A stretch of 64,000 nucleotides of DNA from an uncultured bacterium. Its GTDB lineage: Bacteria > JAGRBM01 > JAHCIT01. Of the stretch, positions 4,660 through 57,188 are shown piece after piece (the first letter of the stretch is position 1; each line of letters begins with the position of its first letter). Position numbers and translations under genes: made by a program. The stretch is taken from assembly GCA_964565925.1 (NCBI GenBank), contig CAZMGV010000008.1, positions 2,664 through 66,663 of the forward strand. Direction: 5' to 3'. A model generated the notes under the pieces. The model was not told where the DNA came from. It saw nothing but the letters and a program-made list of their open reading frames with translations, and searched no databases.

Positions 4660-5268
4660 ATGAAGCTCTATAACGACAACATGGCTCCCAATCCGCGCCG
4701 CGCGCGGATATTCATCGCCGAAAAGGGGATCACGATCCCCATGGTGAACGTGAATATCGCCGGTAAGGAGAACCGCACCGACGACTTCCTGGCGAAAAAC
4801 CCGCTGGGGCTGCTGCCGGTGCTGGAACTGGACGACGGCCGCATGCTGCCCGAATCGACAACCATCTGCCGCTATATCGAGGAAATGCATCCCGAGCCGA
4901 ACCTGATGGGCCGCGACGCCTGGGAGCGCGCGACCATCGACCGGTGGAACCGGCACATGGAGTTCGAACTGTTCCTCCCGATCGCGCAGACGTTCCGCAA
5001 CACGCACCCGTTCTGGAAGGGCCGCATCCCGCAGTCGCCCGACTACGGCGAGATGTGCCGCAGCTCCGCCGAGAAGCGCATCCAGTGGCTGAACGACGAG
5101 ATGGCCGGCCGCGAGTTCGTCGCCGGTGACCGGTTCACCATCGCCGACATTTCGGCGCTCGTCGCCATCGATTTCGGCCGTATCTCGAATATCCGCATCC
5201 AGCCCGGCCAGACGAACCTGGAGCGCTGGCACAAGGCGGTCTCGGCGCGCCCGAGCGCCAAGGCATAA
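4660..5268 (+). CDS. glutathione S-transferase
   Basis: GST N-terminal thioredoxin-like region (KLYNDNMAPNPRRARIFIAEKGI) and C-terminal GST domain; 202 aa. Confidence 0.75.
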   Translation: MKLYNDNMAPNPRRARIFIAEKGITIPMVNVNIAGKENRTDDFLAKNPLGLLPVLELDDGRMLPESTTICRYIEEMHPEPNLMGRDAWERATIDRWNRHMEFELFLPIAQTFRNTHPFWKGRIPQSPDYGEMCRSSAEKRIQWLNDEMAGREFVAGDRFTIADISALVAIDFGRISNIRIQPGQTNLERWHKAVSARPSAKA

Positions 5269-9019: not shown

Positions 9020-9875
9020 GGATTCGCTCGATCTCGCTCTTCATATCCACGATCCGGTGGGCCACCGACGTGTTCTGCGCCTTCGACCCGATCGTATTCA
9101 GTTCGCGGAAAATCTCCTGGATGAGAAAGTCCAGCTTGCGCCCGCAGGGCTCGCGCCCCGTGAGCAGTTCGCCGAATTTCTGCAGGTGGCTCTCGAACCG
9201 GACGATCTCTTCGGTCACGTCGGCGCGGTCCACCCAGTAGACCACCTCCTGCGCGAGCCGCTGCTCGTCCAGTTTCAGTTCCACTTCCAGTTCTTTCAGG
9301 CGCTTCTGGATCCGTTCTCGCAGGTTCTGGACGGTCTCGGGGCGCGCCTCTCGCAGCGCGGGGATATGCGCCTTCAGTCCGTCCATCCGCTGGTTCAGGT
9401 CCAGCGCCAGATGCTCGCCCTCGATGGTCCGGACCTTGTCGAGGTCTTCCAGCGCCGCCTCAACGATCTTCACGACCGCATCGGTCACCCGTTCCGACAC
9501 CTCGAAGCGTGACTGCTTCACGACATCCCGCTGCGCGATCACGAGCCTGAACAGGTCGGCGGGGTCGGACTTCAGATGCAGGGTGCTTGCCAGGTTCTCG
9601 AACTCCCGGGCGTAGTGCTCGGCCAGCCCCAGGTCGATCGTGACCGGCTTGCTGTCACCCGCGACCACCGTTTCGTCGAGCGTGAGGTCCACCCGGCCCC
9701 GGTTCACCCGCGAGCGCACGACCTCGGTCAGCTTGCCTTCCAGGATGAGCAGCGACGGCGGCAGCCGGAGCTTGGGGTCCAGGTTGCGGCTGTTCACCGT
9801 CCGGATCTCGCACGAAATCTGGCGGCCTTCCACCACTCCCTGCGCGCGTCCGAACCCGGTCATGCTTTTCGGCAT
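8994..9875 (-). CDS. yicC: YicC family stress-induced protein (DUF1732)
   Basis: MTGFGRAQG...SCEIRTVNSR N-terminus characteristic of YicC; conserved yicC-gmk neighbourhood. Confidence 0.8.
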   Translation of the reverse strand: MPKSMTGFGRAQGVVEGRQISCEIRTVNSRNLDPKLRLPPSLLILEGKLTEVVRSRVNRGRVDLTLDETVVAGDSKPVTIDLGLAEHYAREFENLASTLHLKSDPADLFRLVIAQRDVVKQSRFEVSERVTDAVVKIVEAALEDLDKVRTIEGEHLALDLNQRMDGLKAHIPALREARPETVQNLRERIQKRLKELEVELKLDEQRLAQEVVYWVDRADVTEEIVRFESHLQKFGELLTGREPCGRKLDFLIQEIFRELNTIGSKAQNTSVAHRIVDMKSEIERIREQVQNLE

Positions 9876-15374: not shown

Positions 15375-15452
15375 GTTCGGGCCGAACCTCCCGGGTGTAG
15401 CGCCCCGGTTCAGCGCGAACCGTTCGTCTCAGCGTCAGCGCGAACCGTTCGT
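15375..15452. promoter_or_regulatory. candidate operator: near-palindrome ggttcgg-g-ccgaacc plus two 17-bp direct repeats cagcgcgaaccgttcgt
   Basis: Direct repeats at 15411-15427 and 15436-15452; located upstream of promoter-like element. Confidence 0.35.
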
Positions 15453-15576
15453 GGTGAGCCTGTCGAACCACACGGTTCCGCCGTTCACCCTTCGAGACGC
15501 TTCGCTCCTCAGGGCGAACGGCAATGCCCCAAAGCGGGCGGGCGAACGATAGAGCCCCGAATGATGGCGCCCCCGG

Positions 15577-15655: not shown

Positions 15656-16573
15656 ATGGAAACCATCAACCGCCACCATCACAGACGGCTCGGACTCGGG
15701 ACGGCCTTTGCCGCGCTGGCCGCCCTCACACTGGGCCTTGGCGCCCAGGCCTGCTCCAGCAACGACGCCGCGCCGGGCTTCAAGGCCGGCACCTACGCCA
15801 TCGGCCTGTTCATCGACGACGACCCCGCGGTCACGGCCGCGGATTTCAACAACTTCCCGGACCACATCGCCACCGGCACCATTGACGTGGCCGAGGACGG
15901 CACCATCGACGGCTCCGTCTTCATCAGCTACTCGTACGTGCCCGGCGACGTGGGCGACAACACCGCGGCGGACGTCACCGGCACGGTCGACGCCGACGGC
16001 GGCGCCACGATGGACATCGGCGACGGCCTCCTCACCCTGAGCGGAACGTTCTACGTGAACGCCGACGGAGCGGCGGGCATGCAGGGCAGCATCGAGAACG
16101 ACGACGGCGACTTCGGCGACGCGGTGGCCGTGCTGGCCCCCGGCACCGGCGACATCGATTTCGTCTGCGGACACATGTACTGGAGCACCGACACGCGGCC
16201 GGCGTCCGTTTACGACAGCGGCTACGCGCCGATGTTTATCGCCGTCCAGGACGGTGTCATCGCCGGCGCCGCCTCCGGCCCGGATATCTACCTCACGTTC
16301 GACGGAGAGGTGGGCGACAACCTCGTAGCCGACCAGTACGCCGTGACGTATGACTTCGACGCCGAAATCGCGGCCGAGACCTACGTGCCGATTTCCGTCG
16401 ACGCCGAGGCTGGCAAGGAGATCGTGACCGTCAGCGGAACCCAGAACACCGGCACGCCCTACATCCAGATGACCGACGGACACGCGGTTTACCTCAACGC
16501 CGGGTTCGTCGACGCCGACGAGACCTTCTACGGCTGGATGAACGTGAACGACGACTACTGCGACTACGACTGA
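15656..16573 (+). CDS. secreted highly acidic (Asp-rich) protein of unknown function
   Basis: Signal peptide ending AQA|C; extreme D/G/T-rich composition (GDVGDN, GTGDID) suggesting possible Ca-binding; 305 aa. Confidence 0.6.
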   Translation: METINRHHHRRLGLGTAFAALAALTLGLGAQACSSNDAAPGFKAGTYAIGLFIDDDPAVTAADFNNFPDHIATGTIDVAEDGTIDGSVFISYSYVPGDVGDNTAADVTGTVDADGGATMDIGDGLLTLSGTFYVNADGAAGMQGSIENDDGDFGDAVAVLAPGTGDIDFVCGHMYWSTDTRPASVYDSGYAPMFIAVQDGVIAGAASGPDIYLTFDGEVGDNLVADQYAVTYDFDAEIAAETYVPISVDAEAGKEIVTVSGTQNTGTPYIQMTDGHAVYLNAGFVDADETFYGWMNVNDDYCDYD

Positions 16574-16610
16574 GCCTGCGCGCCTAGCAGTCTTCAGCAG
16601 TCTTTAACAG

Positions 16611-16650
16611 AGCGGCCGCTCCCCGGAAGGTGGGCGGCCGTTTTTTTTGT
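16611..16650 (+). terminator. rho-independent terminator
   Basis: GC stem cggccgc...gcggccg followed by TTTTTTTTG immediately after ORF 15656-16573. Confidence 0.7.
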
Positions 16651-16757
16651 TTGGGCCCGCCGGCCTGTGCCCAGTCTTGTTCCACGAAGCTTTAGCGAAG
16701 GGGAAAGCCGAAGGACGGAGGGGTAAGTCTCAACGGAGGAGGGTCAGGTAAATACTG

Positions 16758-17219
16758 TCATGGTATAGTTTTCGTGACGAAATATATCGCACAAACGATG
16801 CCTAAAAGCATCATACCGAATGCGCCTACTGCCGCACAGTAGCCGTGCCTAGCCCGCGACTCTATGAATTTCTTAACTTCGATCGCACGGGACGCATCAA
16901 TTTTTGCTAAGCGCGGGAATATGACGTAGCCACATAAAAATAAAGAAACCATCCATGAGAAACAGGGGATCCATACCCAATGTCCTGGAACTACTTGGCC
17001 GGGATCCTTACAATCACGATATAGCTTCAATAACCCGAGATAGACCGGCTGCATCCCTGCACTAATCGTAGCAATATGCTTCGCGGCATCCGTCAGGCTA
17101 CCGATGCTCCCCGAAATCAAATCCTCTCCCATTTTTTTATACGCCGGACTCATCTTTTCAAAACGCTCAAGCGCTTCTTGAACACTATCGGGCGCGCGTT
17201 CGCCATTGATCACAGCCAT
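16758..17219 (-). CDS. small two-TM membrane protein (island gene D)
   Basis: Two C-terminal hydrophobic helices (WVWIPCFSWMVSLFLCGYVIF; YCAAVGAFGMMLLGIVCAIYFV); 20-nt gap to upstream gene. Confidence 0.5.
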   Translation of the reverse strand: MAVINGERAPDSVQEALERFEKMSPAYKKMGEDLISGSIGSLTDAAKHIATISAGMQPVYLGLLKLYRDCKDPGQVVPGHWVWIPCFSWMVSLFLCGYVIFPRLAKIDASRAIEVKKFIESRARHGYCAAVGAFGMMLLGIVCAIYFVTKTIP

Positions 17220-17238
17220 CTCAGCGACCCCAAATCAC

Positions 17239-17451
17239 CTAAAATAGAAAGGTTACCTTGTTAGCTTTTCCACACTCTGAGCATATATCATACCGATTCT
17301 CAGCTGTCATAGGCGCGCGCACTTCCATTTTCATAATGGAATCCTTCTCCGCGGATAACATTGCTTCGACATCCTGGATCGAATACGTTTGGCTGTATAT
17401 GGAAGTATTTTCTTTCTTACAATTGAAACATGTATACTTTACCATTTTCAC
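17239..17451 (-). CDS. small zinc-ribbon protein (island gene C)
   Basis: CFNC...CSEC paired CxxC motifs in 70 aa; 31-nt gap to upstream ATPase gene. Confidence 0.5.
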   Translation of the reverse strand: MKMVKYTCFNCKKENTSIYSQTYSIQDVEAMLSAEKDSIMKMEVRAPMTAENRYDICSECGKANKVTFLF

Positions 17452-17481
17452 GAGACACCTCCCGGATATTCACAACTCATT

Positions 17482-19092
17482 TCATCCTGACAAATACTCA
17501 TAGACAGCTTCTCTAACCGAATTTTTTATCGCTCGGGATCTATGAGGCCCAACGTACTTTACTTTCTGAAGCTTCTCATCAGATGCTCTAAGCACTTGCT
17601 CTAGAGTAAGCAGATTAAGCTCCTTAAGTTTTACTTTTTGCCATTCCGTGACATCCAATAGCTCGATAGACTTAGAATATGCACTCTTAAGAATATCTGT
17701 AACATTAATGTCTGGATACAATTCTTTTTCAGGAGGCAAAGACTTGAATGATTCATGATTCATTCCGTATTCTGTCATAAGTTTAATTGACAGATTTTTT
17801 GCAAATTCAATCAATCTAATTCCTTTGATATCCATTACTTTCGACATCACGATTCCCAAATGCACCGCATAACGGGAGCCAATCTCCGCTCGTGTTGCCT
17901 TAATCCCAGTCGCATGCTCGCGAATGATCCCCGTATAAGATAAAAGTCGGAATGCGTGCCTGACGGCTTCAGGTGCATCACGGTGCAGCCAGATAAAGCA
18001 CGACGTTTTCTTATCGGATTTTAAGTACGCTTCATTTTTTTGATATAACTCGTTCAATACGTTGCCTTCGACAAAATTGCGGCCCCAATCTATTAAAGGT
18101 TTATGCCCAGTATAACTCTCAACTAACATGGAATGTTCGGACCATATGTCATCTCGGTAATACTCTCGGATAACCCGCCTCACATTATCTCCGTTTAGCT
18201 TCTTCGCTCTAAGAATCGTTTTAAAAAGTAGTCGTGGATTTCCATCAGAGGCATAAGCGAGTTCCGAAAAGTGCTCCCTATTTTCTTCAATTTGTTTAAT
18301 AAGCTGTAGGTCCCCCTGCTTTACTATCATCTCCTCCATATTCTTAATGTAATCTTCACTTAATACATCTCTATTAACATTTAAGAATGTAGCATCATGA
18401 GTAGGCTCAAATGTATCTCCGTAATTAGTGACTCCAGGGTATACGGCCGCATTACAAGTCATAAATGGACTTCGTAAATCTCTAAACAACGTAAAAAATT
18501 GTCTTTGTTGCTCTGGTTTTAAGATATGTGCGGCTTCATCAAAAAATACACAAAAGCGAGATATTCCAAAGCCGATACATATATCTTCAACAGCTTCTTT
18601 AAATTGATCTACACTCGGTAATTTCGCTATATCGACTTTTACATCTGGGTGTTCCCAAGATTGCTCATACGCTTGGACAATCTTTGCGATATCGACTTCG
18701 TCTTTGGAATATCTGATTGATGGCGATGGAGTGAGCGAAAACGCCGAACTATCCGTAAAACCATATCTTCTCATACTTCTAATTATTGATTGCCATAATT
18801 TCCCAAGCATCCAGTGCTGGAATTGCATCTGATCATTGGTCTGTATAAGTGTGCCCTTGACAAAACTAATATATATCGGGAGTACTTTGTTATTGGCGAA
18901 ATTGGCTGAAAGTTCTTGAATTGCAACTTTCAATAAAAATGATTTTCCAACGCCTCTACTGCCCACTACAATTGTCGGAGCTTTGGATTTCAGGGAGTCG
19001 ATGATCCGACGGTCTTGTTCAGATTCGACGAAATACTGAATTATATCTTCGTCTTTTATATCTTCCGTACGGAATATTAGTGGATCACTCAT
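17482..19092 (-). CDS. P-loop NTPase (AAA+/STAND-like) with C-terminal helix-hairpin-helix (RNAP alpha-CTD-like) domain (island gene B)
   Basis: Walker A VVGSRGVGKS, Walker B FCVFFDEAAH; C-terminus LTLEQVLRASDEKLQKVKYVGPHRSRAIKNSVREAV resembles alpha-CTD HhH; start at ATG 19092 with AAGGGA RBS (longer ORF to 19143 possible). Confidence 0.7.
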   Translation of the reverse strand: MSDPLIFRTEDIKDEDIIQYFVESEQDRRIIDSLKSKAPTIVVGSRGVGKSFLLKVAIQELSANFANNKVLPIYISFVKGTLIQTNDQMQFQHWMLGKLWQSIIRSMRRYGFTDSSAFSLTPSPSIRYSKDEVDIAKIVQAYEQSWEHPDVKVDIAKLPSVDQFKEAVEDICIGFGISRFCVFFDEAAHILKPEQQRQFFTLFRDLRSPFMTCNAAVYPGVTNYGDTFEPTHDATFLNVNRDVLSEDYIKNMEEMIVKQGDLQLIKQIEENREHFSELAYASDGNPRLLFKTILRAKKLNGDNVRRVIREYYRDDIWSEHSMLVESYTGHKPLIDWGRNFVEGNVLNELYQKNEAYLKSDKKTSCFIWLHRDAPEAVRHAFRLLSYTGIIREHATGIKATRAEIGSRYAVHLGIVMSKVMDIKGIRLIEFAKNLSIKLMTEYGMNHESFKSLPPEKELYPDINVTDILKSAYSKSIELLDVTEWQKVKLKELNLLTLEQVLRASDEKLQKVKYVGPHRSRAIKNSVREAVYEYLSG

Positions 19093-19096
19093 GGAA

Positions 19097-19837
19097 TTAT
19101 CCCTTACTATAATACTGTCTGAATATCGGAATACTCGAAACATTATCTTGGAATACCGGCTCTAGCAGTGCTTTATCTTCAGCATTTAAACCGGCCAGAT
19201 ACCTTGAAAATAACCCGATCTGGACGATAAAGAATACGCTATCTGCTAAGGTTAACCACTCTCGAAATACCGGTTCATTATATTCGATATCGGCCTTCAA
19301 AAAATCGGTTCGGGAGTAATTCCCGTGCACGTATTCTGAACAGGATCGATATACTTTTGCACAATGTTCTGAATAGATCGATGAATCTGTCTCTAATCCG
19401 GCGCAATATAACTTACAGTAAGAGGCGGAGAATACACCGTTGTCCTTGTTGGTCACTTCTGACCACTGCAAATCATATTTACCGGCTTTCCAGGCTCTAA
19501 AGTGATAATCATGCATCGAAAAATATATGACACCAATTGAGGCTTCCAAAAATTGGCGCAATTCAAATATTGCTTGTCGATATCCTCCAGTAGTCCCTTC
19601 ATATAGGGAGCGACTGAACCCCCAACAGCAATAGTTGAATAGTTCGACCTCCGGAGTTTCCTGAATAATATTTCGCCAAATCTCTAAATCGGCGCGCTTT
19701 GAATGGATTGCTGCCAGACGACCGGCGTGGCTAGATTGCAGCGCTAACGCCGAATTGCTTTGAACCTTCTGGATTAAGCGTGTGTATTCGCTTGTAAGCG
19801 CCGTCACCGCGATAGCTGGCTTTGAAATATCAGACAT
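19097..19837 (-). CDS. hypothetical protein (island gene A), Cys-rich, possible Rx6H (HEPN-like) motif
   Basis: 246 aa from ATG 19837 (TTG at 19849 also possible); coding-like periodicity; first gene of the island operon; RSCSEYVH motif. Confidence 0.5.
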   Translation of the reverse strand: MSDISKPAIAVTALTSEYTRLIQKVQSNSALALQSSHAGRLAAIHSKRADLEIWRNIIQETPEVELFNYCCWGFSRSLYEGTTGGYRQAIFELRQFLEASIGVIYFSMHDYHFRAWKAGKYDLQWSEVTNKDNGVFSASYCKLYCAGLETDSSIYSEHCAKVYRSCSEYVHGNYSRTDFLKADIEYNEPVFREWLTLADSVFFIVQIGLFSRYLAGLNAEDKALLEPVFQDNVSSIPIFRQYYSKG

Positions 19838-20099
19838 GTACGGTTCCAATCGTCTTTGATATCACAAAATATATACCAACTAGTAAAAGTGTTCAAAAAA
19901 ATAGTAGTAGGCGCCATCCTTATTCACAGGCTCACCACGAACGGTGCCGCTCTGAAAATGCACCTTCCGGTGCGGCTTTCCCCCGAAATTCCCGCCAGTT
20001 ACCAACTGTGACACTCCGTGACACACACGTCTGATAGGGTGCTTTGCAGGTAAGGGGGCATATGGGCCCCGCCATCACAAGTCTGCCGCTTCCATCCCT

Positions 20100-20189
20100 G
20101 CGACCCCGAGGGCGGGGTCGCGGTCCCTTCCGGAGGAAGGGACTTTCGGGAGCCCTCTTCCCATGGAAGAGGGTCCGGCTGAAAGCCGG
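20100..20189. repeat. cluster of four contiguous GC-rich stem-loops
   Basis: gcgacccc-gagggc-ggggtcgc (20100-20121); tcccttcc-gga-ggaaggga (20124-20142); ccctcttcc-cat-ggaagaggg (20153-20173); ccggct-gaa-agccgg (20175-20189). Confidence 0.6.
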
Positions 20190-20205
20190 GGGAGATGGCG
20201 CAGGG

Positions 20206-21165
20206 ATGGAGAAGGAGGTCCTTTTGATGCTTCGAGATCCCGATCTGCCGCACTACCAGCCGAGCGCGACCATCAACTGCCTGGTGCAGGCGATGCGAAC
20301 GCCTGACCCGATTGTCGCCCGGAATCTGTTTCTGGAGGCCCGGGCGCGGGTCCTTCAGGGGGCGGTCTATTTAGGCGCCTGGACGAAGAACGACCGGGTC
20401 GCCTGCGAGAGCCACAAGCTCACCCTGCGAGAAACGAACCGGCTCTACCACGACTACGACCGGATCGCGTTCGAGGCGCAGCGGCTGGCCGGCTCCGAAG
20501 GCCGAGCGGCGGCGGCAGCGCACGCCGACCTGCACAAGGGCCGCCATAACCCGGTCACGGCGAACCAGGAGGACTACCTCCCGCCGCTCCAGGGTCCGGA
20601 GGAAGCCACGCCTGAACAGCGGGACGAAGCGGCCTCCGTTCTGGAGTTCCAGAACCTCGAAGCCGAGCGCGAAACCCTCGACTGCATCAGCCGGTTCTTT
20701 AAGGACCTAAACACATTGGAAATTTCTCCGCAGCTCCGCAACCGCCCGGAAAAACTGGAGAATCTGGCGAAGGAACTTGTGGACGGAATCCCGCCGGAGG
20801 TGCTTGATGGGGTGGCTGATTCTTTCGCCGACATGCATCCGTTGAACTTAGGAACGGTGAGGGGTGGAGACATTCCGCACCCCCACCCGGCGGCGCCATA
20901 TCCCACCGGAGATGCCACCGGAGACGCCGCCGGGTCTCCCCCGTCGAGGGGGAGAGACTCCGCCCGGCTGACTACCCCGGGTCCATTCAGCCCCGCGAGT
21001 CTGTCCCCCCAATTCGGGGGGACCGCGAAGGCGAAGCCGGAGCAAGGGGGTCTGCGGGACGGGGGGACCGCGAGCCGCGTTTTACCGGAGGCGGGCAAGG
21101 AGGTTGAGCAGCCGGAGGTGACACTGCCCGGTCCCCCATCAGGTCACCCTCCCCTCCGGTTTTGA
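20206..21165 (+). CDS. hypothetical protein with Pro/Gly-rich C-terminal tail
   Basis: ORF from MEKEVLLMLRD; N-terminal part coding-like, C-terminal low complexity; no motif; could be spurious. Confidence 0.3.
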   Translation: MEKEVLLMLRDPDLPHYQPSATINCLVQAMRTPDPIVARNLFLEARARVLQGAVYLGAWTKNDRVACESHKLTLRETNRLYHDYDRIAFEAQRLAGSEGRAAAAAHADLHKGRHNPVTANQEDYLPPLQGPEEATPEQRDEAASVLEFQNLEAERETLDCISRFFKDLNTLEISPQLRNRPEKLENLAKELVDGIPPEVLDGVADSFADMHPLNLGTVRGGDIPHPHPAAPYPTGDATGDAAGSPPSRGRDSARLTTPGPFSPASLSPQFGGTAKAKPEQGGLRDGGTASRVLPEAGKEVEQPEVTLPGPPSGHPPLRF

Positions 21166-21282
21166 ACCGGTTTGGATTGGGTCTAAGATAGGTATCTGTG
21201 AAGAGCCGGTGACCTGCCGGTGACCTCAACGGGTGTGCCGGAACCCCCTGAAACAACTGAAGAAACAGAAAGTAACGACTCC

Positions 21283-22494
21283 ATGAAATACCTGATCCTG
21301 CTCGGCGACGGAATGGCGGATCTGCCCAGCGACAAGCTGGGCGGCAAGACGCCGCTCGACCTCGCCAACAAGCCGCTGATCGACCGGTTCGCCACCTACG
21401 GCGAGCTGGGTCTGTGCGACACGACGCCCAAGGGGTGCGAGCCGGGCTCGGACGTGAACAACATGGCGATACTCGGCTACGACGCCGGCAACCTGTATAC
21501 GGGCCGCTCGCCGCTGGAAGCCGCCGCGATGGGCTACGAACTGAAGGACGACGACGTGTCGTTCCGCTGCAACCTGGTGACCCTGGACGGCGACGGCGTC
21601 GACTCGGTGATGAAGAGCTACAGCGCCGGTTCGATCACGACCGAAGAGGCTGCCGATATCATCAACACGGTTCATGAGAAGCTGGGCGGCGATCAGGGCA
21701 AATACGGCCGGTTCACGTTCCGGCCGGGGATCGCCTACCGGCACCTGATGGTGTGGCACGGCGGGCGGCCGAGGCACGACCTCAAGCCCCCGCACAACAT
21801 CGCCGACAAGCCTGTAAAAGAATGGTTCCCGGTGGATGAGTCACTGCGGCACCTCATGCTGGAATCCCGCAAGTTCCTGATGGAGCACCCGGTGAACAAA
21901 CGCCGCGTGGCGGACGGCAAGCTGCCGGCCAACTCCGTCTGGTTCTGGGGCCAGGGCAAGCGCCCGCTGCTGCCAAAGATCACGGACCAGATCAAGATGT
22001 CGGGCGCGATGATCTCGGCGGTGGACCTGCTCCGCGGGATCGGCAAGCTGGCCGGGATGGAAGTGATCAAGGTGCCGGGCTCGACGGGCGAGATCCACAC
22101 GGACTGGGACGCCGAGACGCGGGCGGCGATCGAAGCGCTCAAGCGCCATGACTTCGTGTTCCTGCACCAGGAGGCCCCCGACGAGGCGGGCCACCAGGGC
22201 AATCCGCAGGACAAGATCAAGACGATCGAGTACCTGGATTCGAAGCACCTGAGGCCCATCGTCGATTTTCTGGACCAGAACTATCCTGACTACCGGGTGC
22301 TGATTCTGCCGGACCATCCGACGCCGTGGGCGACCAAGGACCATATCCCGGACCCGGTGCCGTATGTGCTCTACCGCTCGGAAGACGCGAAACGCAGTAA
22401 CCCCAGGGTCCGCAAATATACCGAGCGCGACGCGGCGGCGTCGGGCGTGTTCATCGGCCACGGCAAGGAGCTGGTTCCCCGCATGATGAGCTGA
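21283..22494 (+). CDS. apgM: cofactor-independent phosphoglycerate mutase, archaeal type (ApgM family)
   Basis: MKYLILLGDGMADLP N-terminus and overall ~400 aa architecture typical of ApgM/BPG-independent PGAM archaeal form; RBS gaaacagaaag. Confidence 0.7.
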   Translation: MKYLILLGDGMADLPSDKLGGKTPLDLANKPLIDRFATYGELGLCDTTPKGCEPGSDVNNMAILGYDAGNLYTGRSPLEAAAMGYELKDDDVSFRCNLVTLDGDGVDSVMKSYSAGSITTEEAADIINTVHEKLGGDQGKYGRFTFRPGIAYRHLMVWHGGRPRHDLKPPHNIADKPVKEWFPVDESLRHLMLESRKFLMEHPVNKRRVADGKLPANSVWFWGQGKRPLLPKITDQIKMSGAMISAVDLLRGIGKLAGMEVIKVPGSTGEIHTDWDAETRAAIEALKRHDFVFLHQEAPDEAGHQGNPQDKIKTIEYLDSKHLRPIVDFLDQNYPDYRVLILPDHPTPWATKDHIPDPVPYVLYRSEDAKRSNPRVRKYTERDAAASGVFIGHGKELVPRMMS

Positions 22495-22506
22495 GGGGAC
22501 AGTTTA

Positions 22507-22610
22507 GCGCCGGGGGCACTGCTTTCCGCGCCCCGGCTCGTACCCCGCTCAAGCGGCCGGTTGCCCGGAGTCCGCTGGGTGGGCGCAGAAAGCAGTACCC
22601 CCGGCGCCCC
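22507..22610. repeat. long inverted repeat between convergent genes (possible bidirectional terminator or miniature element)
   Basis: gcgccgggggcactgctttc ... gaaagcagtacccccggcgc (20/21 nt complementary arms ~60 nt apart). Confidence 0.5.
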
Positions 22611-22659
22611 TGTCCGGAGTACGAGACTGGGCTTGAGGGAGGAGACTCCCCGCCGCCCG

Positions 22660-56968: not shown

Positions 56969-57019
56969 CCCCCACCCCAACCCCTCCCCCTGGAGGGGGG
57001 GGGAGGGGTTGGGGTGGGG
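56969..57019. repeat. perfect C-rich/G-rich palindrome (potential cruciform / i-motif / G4)
   Basis: cccccaccccaacccctccccc-tgga-gggggggggaggggttggggtgggg; within 423-bp tsaD-rsmA intergenic region. Confidence 0.85.
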
Positions 57020-57188
57020 AAGTAAAAGGCGGAGCAAGGGGGCAATGAGAGGAGGGGGGGACCCCACCTCACATCAACACGGTTAAACACGAATGGACAC
57101 GAGAAATGCGGTACTGGTTTCCGGGCCAAAACAGACATAGCTGTCCACTTTCCACCGAAAAACACGGAATAACACAGAACGAACGGCT

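Follow-up and report, generated by a model that had tools for sequence, protein, structure and literature searches.

A 120-nt module of perfect hairpins before an orphan gene of an uncultured bacterium, tentatively read as a palindromic insertion

Repetitive extragenic palindromic (REP) sequences are palindromic units of 20-40 bp, most families of which are tagged by an unpaired GTAG or CGTC at one end of the palindrome. They lie mainly downstream of open reading frames (ORFs), between co-directional or convergent genes, and those at ORF 5' ends have been proposed as post-transcriptional control elements (PMC3733652). [quoted passage not shown] In-frame insertions of REPs and of Rickettsia palindromic elements (RPEs), 20-80 aa in length, are likewise documented (PMC3733652, PMC10969869). 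The present analysis concerns a 64-kb stretch of contig CAZMGV010000008.1 from an uncultured bacterium (the window), and within it four back-to-back GC-rich hairpins at 20100-20189. These belong to a 120-nt module that ends just before the ribosome-binding site (RBS) of an orphan gene, P0001. We read the module, tentatively and with something short of even confidence, as a REP/MITE-type compound palindromic insertion upstream of that site, probably transcribed as a structured five-helix leader.

Anatomy and stability of the hairpin module

Hairpin 1 (H1), 20100-20121: GCGACCCCG-AGGG-CGGGGTCGC, 9 bp with a 4-nt loop, all Watson-Crick (inverted-repeat scan)
Hairpin 2 (H2), 20123-20143: GTCCCTTCC-GGA-GGAAGGGAC, 9 bp with a 3-nt loop (inverted-repeat scan)
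Hairpin 3 (H3), 20153-20173: CCCTCTTCC-CAT-GGAAGAGGG, 9 bp with a 3-nt loop (inverted-repeat scan)
Hairpin 4 (H4), 20175-20189: CCGGCT-GAA-AGCCGG, 6 bp with a 3-nt loop (sequence, fold)
Closing inverted repeat, left arm, 20091-20102: TCCATCCCTGCG, 12 nt (inverted-repeat scan)
Closing inverted repeat, right arm, 20199-20210: CGCAGGGATGGA, 12 nt, ending where the Shine-Dalgarno purine tract begins (inverted-repeat scan)

The hairpin array is real: the sequence and an inverted-repeat scan yield four perfect stem-loops within 20100-20189. The original prediction, made from the sequence alone, had placed them at the correct coordinates and had given them stems of 8, 8, 9 and 6 bp and loops of 6, 3, 3 and 3 nt; the actual values are 9, 9, 9 and 6 bp and 4, 3, 3 and 3 nt, so that it was off by one closing pair. 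It had also overlooked the 12-nt inverted repeat that encloses the array. The arms of this closing repeat are 100% complementary and stand 96 nt apart with all four hairpins between them, which makes the unit a 120-nt module of five helices. All 45 of its 45 potential pairs are Watson-Crick, with no bulge, mismatch or G-U pair; as plus-strand RNA, H2 gains one additional G-U pair (20122/20144).

The last three nucleotides of the left arm (GCG) coincide with the base of H1, and because the closing stem and H1 compete for them, the closing stem has two alternative forms. The four hairpins form in every sequence context that was folded, whereas the closing stem and the pairing of the RBS vary with the context. 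H2 and H3 have CTTCC-N3-GGAAG in common, which occurs twice in the window against 0.11 expected, and they differ at three stem positions with a complementary change at each, which points to maintenance of either pairing or palindromic symmetry. GGA motifs lie in or beside the hairpin loops and recur in the RBS tract.

The stability of this structure sets it apart from its surroundings. Specifically, the plus strand of 20090-20200 (111 nt) has a minimum free energy (MFE) of -73.6 kcal/mol against -51.9 +/- 4.1 kcal/mol in dinucleotide shuffles (z -5.3), none of the 200 shuffles being as stable, and the minus strand of the array reaches z -6.0 against shuffles of the same kind. RNA folding, which the original prediction had named as a check, thus bears out the four hairpins. 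When the same 131 nt are folded on both strands, the plus strand gives -83.0 and the minus strand -77.6 kcal/mol, the plus strand having two more G-U pairs. With MFE regressed on GC content, 20081-20200 ranks as the most stable among the 3194 sliding 120-nt windows of the 64 kb, at -5.4 standard deviations. A comparison sample of 1.24 Mb of bacterial DNA, composed of the window and 78 fetched loci, contains perfect hairpins of at least 8 bp at a density of 0.22 per kb; two of them fall within 120 nt at 12 places, and three do so at this site only. A chance origin of the hairpin cluster is excluded.

The orphan gene and its palindromic segments

Shine-Dalgarno-like tract, 20209-20219, plus strand: GGAGAAGGAGG, 7 nt before ATG 20227 (sequence)
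Orphan gene P0001, 20227-21165, plus strand: 312 aa (domain scan, protein alignment, codon-position GC)
Second array, 20885-21023: four back-to-back hairpins in the 3' part of the orphan ORF, z -4.6
REP-like repeat core, 15444-15463, plus strand: ACCGTTCGTGGTGAGCCTGT, 20 nt, one of two exact copies in the window, where chance predicts 0
REP-like repeat core, 19926-19945, minus strand: the other copy of ACCGTTCGTGGTGAGCCTGT, directly adjoining an AT-rich island, at whose edge it is exactly truncated

Only 2 nt separate the module from the Shine-Dalgarno sequence that belongs to the orphan gene, and the array is non-coding, as the original prediction had held. The three known family proteins all begin MLR(D/N)PDLPHYQ, which corresponds to ATG 20227, and GC at codon positions 1/2/3 is flat across 20044-20226 (0.69/0.57/0.69) and coding-like across 20227-20871 (0.71/0.42/0.78; compare 0.63/0.41/0.89 for the gene apgM). 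That the array might instead be translated, as an Arg/Gly-rich N-terminal extension within ORF 20044-21165, is scarcely credible. The frame is open from TTG 20044 and ATG 20206 lies in it, but five of the six reading frames are open across the array, so that an open frame is uninformative here; by our estimate, an open frame of 61 codons has a chance probability of about 20% at such GC content. The flat codon-position GC, the shared MLR start of the annotated relatives and the strong Shine-Dalgarno tract before ATG 20227 all argue against translation.

The protein itself falls into two parts. Its N-terminal 215 aa are conserved, coding-like and predicted to be all-helical, and its C-terminal 97 aa, with flat codon-position GC, are encoded by palindromic or repeat DNA; in an AlphaFold model of poor confidence (mean predicted local distance difference test score 48.3), about 200 aa at the N-terminus are predicted to be helical and the C-terminus to be disordered. 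P0001 has no match in Pfam or PADLOC. A word-indexed search of 5.8 billion protein clusters returned two relatives only, P0002 (79% identity) and P0003 (90% identity over the first 215 aa). An exhaustive HMMER search of 1.84 billion representatives recovered P0003 and nothing new, and scans of GTDB genomes and JGI metagenomes yielded no homologue; exact look-ups of the three proteins likewise gave no record. P0002 is reported on a contig whose length (180,678) equals that for P0001 and for ApgM of the window, and is probably a paralogue encoded elsewhere on the contig of P0001.

The alignment of the three proteins reveals where they diverge. As far as VRGGD (residue 215) they run collinear at about 90% identity, and past it they differ in blocks. 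Straight after VRGGD, P0001 carries a 28-aa in-frame insert encoded by a palindrome (20872-20955), and at the same site P0002 and P0003 carry 45-47 aa, TDSSGLRPPSLQAEKAETVRGE...PFDRLR(A/V)NG, encoded by the REP-like repeat, whose translation in both proteins reads ...VRGEPVEP...PFDRLRANG. Residues 231-249 of P0003 match the copy of this repeat at 15438-15494 of the window (tblastn). A further hairpin-encoding block of 40 aa is present in P0001 and P0002 and missing from P0003, and the window copy lacks the C-terminal domain that P0002 and P0003 share. In P0001 the palindromic segments occupy 20872-20955 and 20956-21075 of the 3' half of the ORF; the second array has perfect 8-bp stems at 20935-20955 and 21003-21023, and its codon-position GC is flat (0.73/0.67/0.74). 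The orphan family is decorated by palindromic segments that have been gained, lost or replaced in frame.

Both kinds of repeat show further internal duplication: tandem 12-mers, ATCCCACCGGAG x2, lie within 20885-21023, and partial tandem duplications, TCAGCGCGAACCGTTCGT x2, lie at 15400-15530. Literature on the peptide motif FDKLRANG gave nothing by which to name the REP-like repeat.

Since in-frame palindromic segments come and go in this gene, the 5' module is, by analogy, most simply another such segment. Its pairing, perfectly Watson-Crick with neither bulge nor G-U pair, is characteristic of palindromic DNA repeats that are young and is unusual for functional RNAs that are old, and the genome contains at least one true repeat of the REP-like class, the 20-nt core at 15444 and 19926. 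Further support comes from the motif shared by H2 and H3, from the comparable palindromes of the loci L004 and L044 described below, and from the breaks of short-read assemblies around array and gene. The available data are compatible with a model in which a non-coding palindromic insertion, of a kind prone to insertion and deletion in this lineage, landed or was built 2 nt before the Shine-Dalgarno sequence. The promoter would then necessarily lie to the left of the module, and transcripts of the orphan gene would carry the module as their 5' leader, predicted to fold into a very stable five-helix junction of about -80 kcal/mol. Any effect on the host gene would be post-transcriptional, with the leader serving as a 5' structural cap, as a substrate of the RNase III type or as a partial occlusion of the RBS region, and may be incidental or mild; this likely effect is modelled on leader-located REPs and on Correia and ERIC elements. 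The data show the anatomy of the module, its statistical excess, its non-coding status, its placement with respect to RBS and island, and the insertion-deletion polymorphism of palindromic segments in the gene family; mobility, transcription and influence on expression are what we infer.

Several results weigh against this reading. The module lies in a divergent region and not 3' of an ORF. Its TIRs are not bordered by a target-site duplication, the flanks (GCCGCT on the left, GAAGGAGG on the right) having no bases in common, and 20085-20215 contains none of GTAG, CTAC, CGTC and GACG, the tags of REPs. The module is also GC-rich, unlike MITEs, which are typically AT-rich. Furthermore, blastn-short detected neither the module nor any of its hairpins a second time in the window or the 78 loci, and there was no match to the closing-repeat pattern in JGI metagenomes, to the H2 21-mer in viral contigs, to the module in plasmids and phages (blastn), or to its concatenated six-frame translation among the 5.8 billion protein clusters. 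Of the options that the original prediction had listed, the REP/MITE-like element is the one we favour, although the multiple copies that define such elements did not turn up in the collections searched. The module is not an established member of the REPs, the MITEs, the terminators, the attC sites or any family of Rfam. Most likely it is an ordinary palindromic repeat-type element in an unusual compound form and position.

A real if minority possibility is that the module is a 5' leader RNA dedicated to cis-regulation in the orphan family, selected for its fold and inherited with the gene, whether as a 5' stabiliser or as a five-way junction that binds a protein or senses a ligand or temperature. 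Weak support for such a role comes from the end of the module 2 nt before the Shine-Dalgarno tract, from the three fully compensated pairs between H2 and H3 and from the two extra G-U pairs and lower MFE of the plus strand; hairpins that persist in all fold contexts beside a closing stem and RBS pairing that do not would also suit it, as would the GGA motifs shared by loops and RBS tract. The ends of short-read contigs from Logan suggest, moreover, that the stretch shared with other copies starts near 20013, in which case the array would have been duplicated together with the gene as part of one unit. Yet exclusively Watson-Crick pairing and near-equal folding of both strands are atypical of old RNA structures, and similar arrays lie inside the coding region of the same gene, where a leader role is impossible. 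Nor did a promoter scan find a sigma-70-like site on the plus strand upstream of the array, a result that is uninformative in itself, as the promoter type of the host may differ.

The RNA family searches bear on the same question. Across the whole window, none of the 4227 families of Rfam 15 matched at gathering score, which counts against a leader RNA of a described family; the structured non-coding RNA that the original prediction had considered thus has no Rfam match behind it and survives as a possible 5' leader. At permissive thresholds, 19800-20400 gave whalefall-1 (24.8 bits against a gathering score of 37), FMN (14.7 against 66.2) and dinG (16.4 against 46.9). Whalefall-1 (RF01762), on the minus strand at 20090-20145, was rejected as a chance match, being below threshold and lost in the whole-window search, in which the strongest permissive matches were generic microRNA-hairpin models on an unrelated hairpin.

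Junctions, terminators and comparison loci

AT-rich island, 16650-19925, minus strand: GC 0.39-0.43 against about 0.63, four minus-strand genes including an ORC/CDC6-like ATPase; context, outside the module
Canonical intrinsic terminator, 16601-16648: 3' of gene 15656-16573, GCGGCCGC...GCGGCCG followed by T8
Direct repeat, left copy, 20008-20015, plus strand: GTGACACT, 8 nt, 83 nt left of the module
Direct repeat, right copy, 21118-21125, plus strand: GTGACACT, at the limit of similarity to P0002

Left of the module, between 19880 and 19940, GC climbs from about 0.30 to some 0.55, which places the right compositional edge of the island at about 19900-19925. The original prediction had put the hairpins at the right edge of this island and had suggested that they might be a recombination site marking its junction. 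Neither proposal fits the positions: the module begins about 170-190 nt to the right of the GC transition, and what adjoins the compositional junction is the core of another repeat (19926-19945). No tRNA or tmRNA gene that could have served as a target of the island was found in the window (ARAGORN). The island itself, which lacks an integrase and resembles a candidate defence module, holds a four-gene minus-strand operon encoding a 246-aa protein with no assigned function, a 536-aa ORC/CDC6-like AAA ATPase (PF24389, with weak PADLOC matches to PDC-S01 and mad8), a 70-aa Cys-rich protein and a 153-aa apparently hydrophobic protein with no domain match.

The same layout bears on termination. 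With an intrinsic terminator, a transcription unit ends in a GC-rich hairpin that has a U/T tract behind it, and the T8 terminator at 16601-16648 indicates that this organism uses ordinary T-tract terminators. None of the four hairpins is followed by a T-tract, and a terminator scan reports no site in 20091-20210. At present the island genes and the orphan ORF diverge, with the module in the intergenic region between them on the leader side of the ORF; because the flanking genes diverge, there is no transcript end to terminate at the array. The multi-terminator insulator of the original prediction is not supported on these grounds, and on our reading the module acts neither as a terminator nor as an island attachment site. 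A variant, in which the array is an insulator or a factor-dependent or 'I-shaped' terminator set that shields the orphan gene from upstream read-through, is very doubtful. IS200 is shielded against read-through by the perfect palindrome at its left end, the module sets four very stable GC-rich hairpins in series, and without the island it would sit between the co-directional genes 15656-16573 and 20227-21165. The upstream gene, however, already has its own T8 terminator, and with the flanking genes now divergent nothing but possible spurious transcripts would enter from the left.

The pair of 8-nt direct repeats raises the question whether the array acts as DNA. The 64 kb contain just two copies of GTGACACT, one on either side of the array and the orphan ORF; GTGACAC is repeated at 20018, near the left copy. 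Independent short-read assemblies of this organism, from runs SRR14271333 and SRR14271334, are 100% identical to the window and leave the stretch of about 1 kb that holds array and gene unjoined: on its left, L077 and L078 of the Logan contigs break off at 20013 and 20006, and L001 and L002 resume at exactly 21022 in both runs. These breaks are consistent with repeated or variable sequence over array and gene, the alternative being a loss of coverage at the GC-rich hairpins. Because the GTGACACT pair flanks it and P0001 lacks the C-terminal domain shared by its relatives, P0001 of the window may be a truncated duplicate of a unit of about 1.1 kb that includes the module.

On this basis the module could be the end or recognition region of a duplicated or mobile unit at 20008-21125, recognised in single-stranded or cruciform form by a recombinase or a protein of replication, an explanation we regard as distinctly unlikely. 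In its favour, the right copy of GTGACACT lies exactly at the end of the P0002 similarity, P0002 is probably a paralogue on the same contig, the missing C-terminal domain fits a truncated duplicate, the left-hand contig ends lie close to the left copy, and the perfect Watson-Crick palindromes are equally good on both strands. However, coincidence of an 8-mer is weak evidence, the right-hand assembly break is at 21022 and not at 21118, and no TIRs lie just inside the GTGACACT copies. The unit and its neighbourhood contain no recombinase, transposase or integrase domain, and the orphan protein has neither detectable domains nor relatives beyond P0002 and P0003.

Of the comparison loci, 72 were obtained by homology to ApgM, the product of the gene that comes after the orphan ORF (apgM, 21283-22494). 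The four close ones (L003, L004, L075 and L076, with ApgM 86-87% identical) show no synteny upstream of apgM: L003, L075 and L076 have mnmA-rnc-era-der-apgM, and L004 has tRNA-Glu and a small AT-richer insert. As the upstream neighbourhoods are entirely different, these loci offer no orthologous intergenic region. In L004, from the related metagenome-assembled genome (MAG) CAZUMS010000005 (ApgM 86% identical), a compound palindrome of 124 nt at 9711-9834 lies 167 nt upstream of apgM; its closing repeat is 14 nt long with arms 96 nt apart, and it has two perfect internal hairpins and z -5.7. The surrounding 9229-9834 comprises tRNA-Glu(UUC), an AT-richer insert of about 400 nt with a small minus-strand ORF and then the compound palindrome, a layout like that of the window, in which a foreign segment is followed by a palindromic module and a native gene.

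It is unlikely, though worth stating, that the module and its look-alike in L004 represent an undescribed, lineage-specific class of compound palindromic elements of about 120 nt. Such a class would be defined by a closing stem with 96 nt between its arms and by several perfect hairpins whose 5' arms are rich in pyrimidines, and would decorate the orphan family both in the leader and in frame. Beyond this lineage, an unrelated GC-rich Binataceae MAG (L044) has five back-to-back perfect GC-rich hairpins at 4768-4935, at the 3' end of an ORF (MFE -131 kcal/mol, z -7.1), and hairpin arrays of this general kind occur about once per 20-60 kb in the sample scanned. Their recurrence in GC-rich genomes lowers the novelty of the module.

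Other palindromes of the window deserve brief mention. Its second most stable structure, at 56969-57020, is a perfect 21-bp stem, CCCCACCCCAACCCCTCCCCC-N8-GGGGGAGGGGTTGGGGTGGGG, in a 420-nt intergenic region between co-directional genes; its arms carry four G-runs and four C-runs, so that a G-quadruplex or i-motif is possible, and Rfam gave only spurious microRNA-type matches. Between the convergent genes for ApgM and a glycosyltransferase, an imperfect palindrome of about 120 nt occupies 22497-22615 (MFE -82 kcal/mol, z -3.9) and is probably a bidirectional terminator or a REP-like element. In most of the strong palindromes (20091-21023 and 56969-57020), and in both of those at 9741-9798 of L004, the pyrimidine-rich arm is 5' and the purine-rich arm 3', an orientation that reads the same on both strands; H4 and the other perfect hairpins of the window are mixed. 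About 60 nt before the apgM start, a direct repeat, GGTGACC-TGCC-GGTGACC, at 21208-21225 with an 11-bp period could be a regulator-binding site.

What the locus would mean depends on which of these explanations applies. If the module is a mobile insert, the locus shows how, in a GC-rich lineage without cultured members, palindromic elements remodel a young orphan gene both in its untranslated leader and, in frame, in its protein, similarly to the RPEs of Rickettsia. If it was instead selected as a leader, it would be a five-way-junction RNA of unusual compactness and stability that belongs to no described family. If it represents a new class, it would be either a new structured leader RNA co-inherited with its gene or a new non-autonomous mobile element with a modular hairpin interior and neither target-site duplication nor REP tag. 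The practical value is limited in any case, because only three genes of the family are known and the module appears single-copy in all searchable data.

Comparison with known systems

Two described elements resemble the module only in part. Whalefall-1 likewise has two adjacent GC-rich hairpins and a CAGGG..GGA tail, seen here on the minus strand of 20090-20145; unlike a family member, the match covers only half of the module and stays at 24.8 bits against a gathering score of 37. Integron attC sites are imperfect palindromes with extrahelical bases and core sites GTTRRRY/RYYYAAC, located at the 3' end of a cassette ORF. An attC site was considered and rejected, as the module has perfect stems, contains no GTT or AAC and lies 5' of the ORF.

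The RPEs of Rickettsia are the nearest parallel to the 3' segments of the orphan ORF, which are in frame, 28-47 aa long, and present, absent or replaced at the same site among relatives. The comparison holds for these ORF-internal modules and not for the 5' array; there is no sequence relation, and the host is an uncultured GC-rich bacterium. The palindrome of L004 shares with the module a length of about 124 nt, arms 96 nt apart, pyrimidine-rich 5' arms (CCTTCCCTG..., GCTCCCCTCA...), the rank of top structural outlier of its locus and a position between an AT-richer insert and apgM. It differs in forming a three-way and not a five-way junction and in having no orphan gene next to it, and as the two show no significant similarity, their homology is unproven.

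Bacterial MITEs such as Correia/NEMIS, ERIC and QMITE come closer. With 120 bp, perfect 12-bp TIRs, a very stable predicted transcript fold (z -5.3) and a position upstream of a gene, the module has the dimensions and the placement of these elements. It departs from them in its GC-richness, in the lack of a flanking direct repeat, in an interior of four autonomous hairpins in place of one long imperfect palindrome, and in that the searched data contain neither copies nor a parent insertion sequence.

REP clusters and arrays like bacterial interspersed mosaic elements complete the comparison. Their REPs are copies of one consensus in alternation, whereas the four hairpins of the module all differ from one another; the module also lacks the GTAG/CGTC tag, yielded no other copy in the data searched, has a 12-bp closing repeat, and lies 5' of ORF 20227-21165, in a setting that is divergent now and would have been co-directional before the island. 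A Pfam scan of 10 ORFs around the locus found no transposase, such as the RAYT (Y1 transposase) associated with REPs. The likeness to these clusters lies in the architecture: GC-rich palindromes of 15-22 bp, which is the span of the module hairpins, are packed back to back and fold into a larger structure that is probably transcribed and would act as RNA, and related palindromes stand in frame within the same gene.

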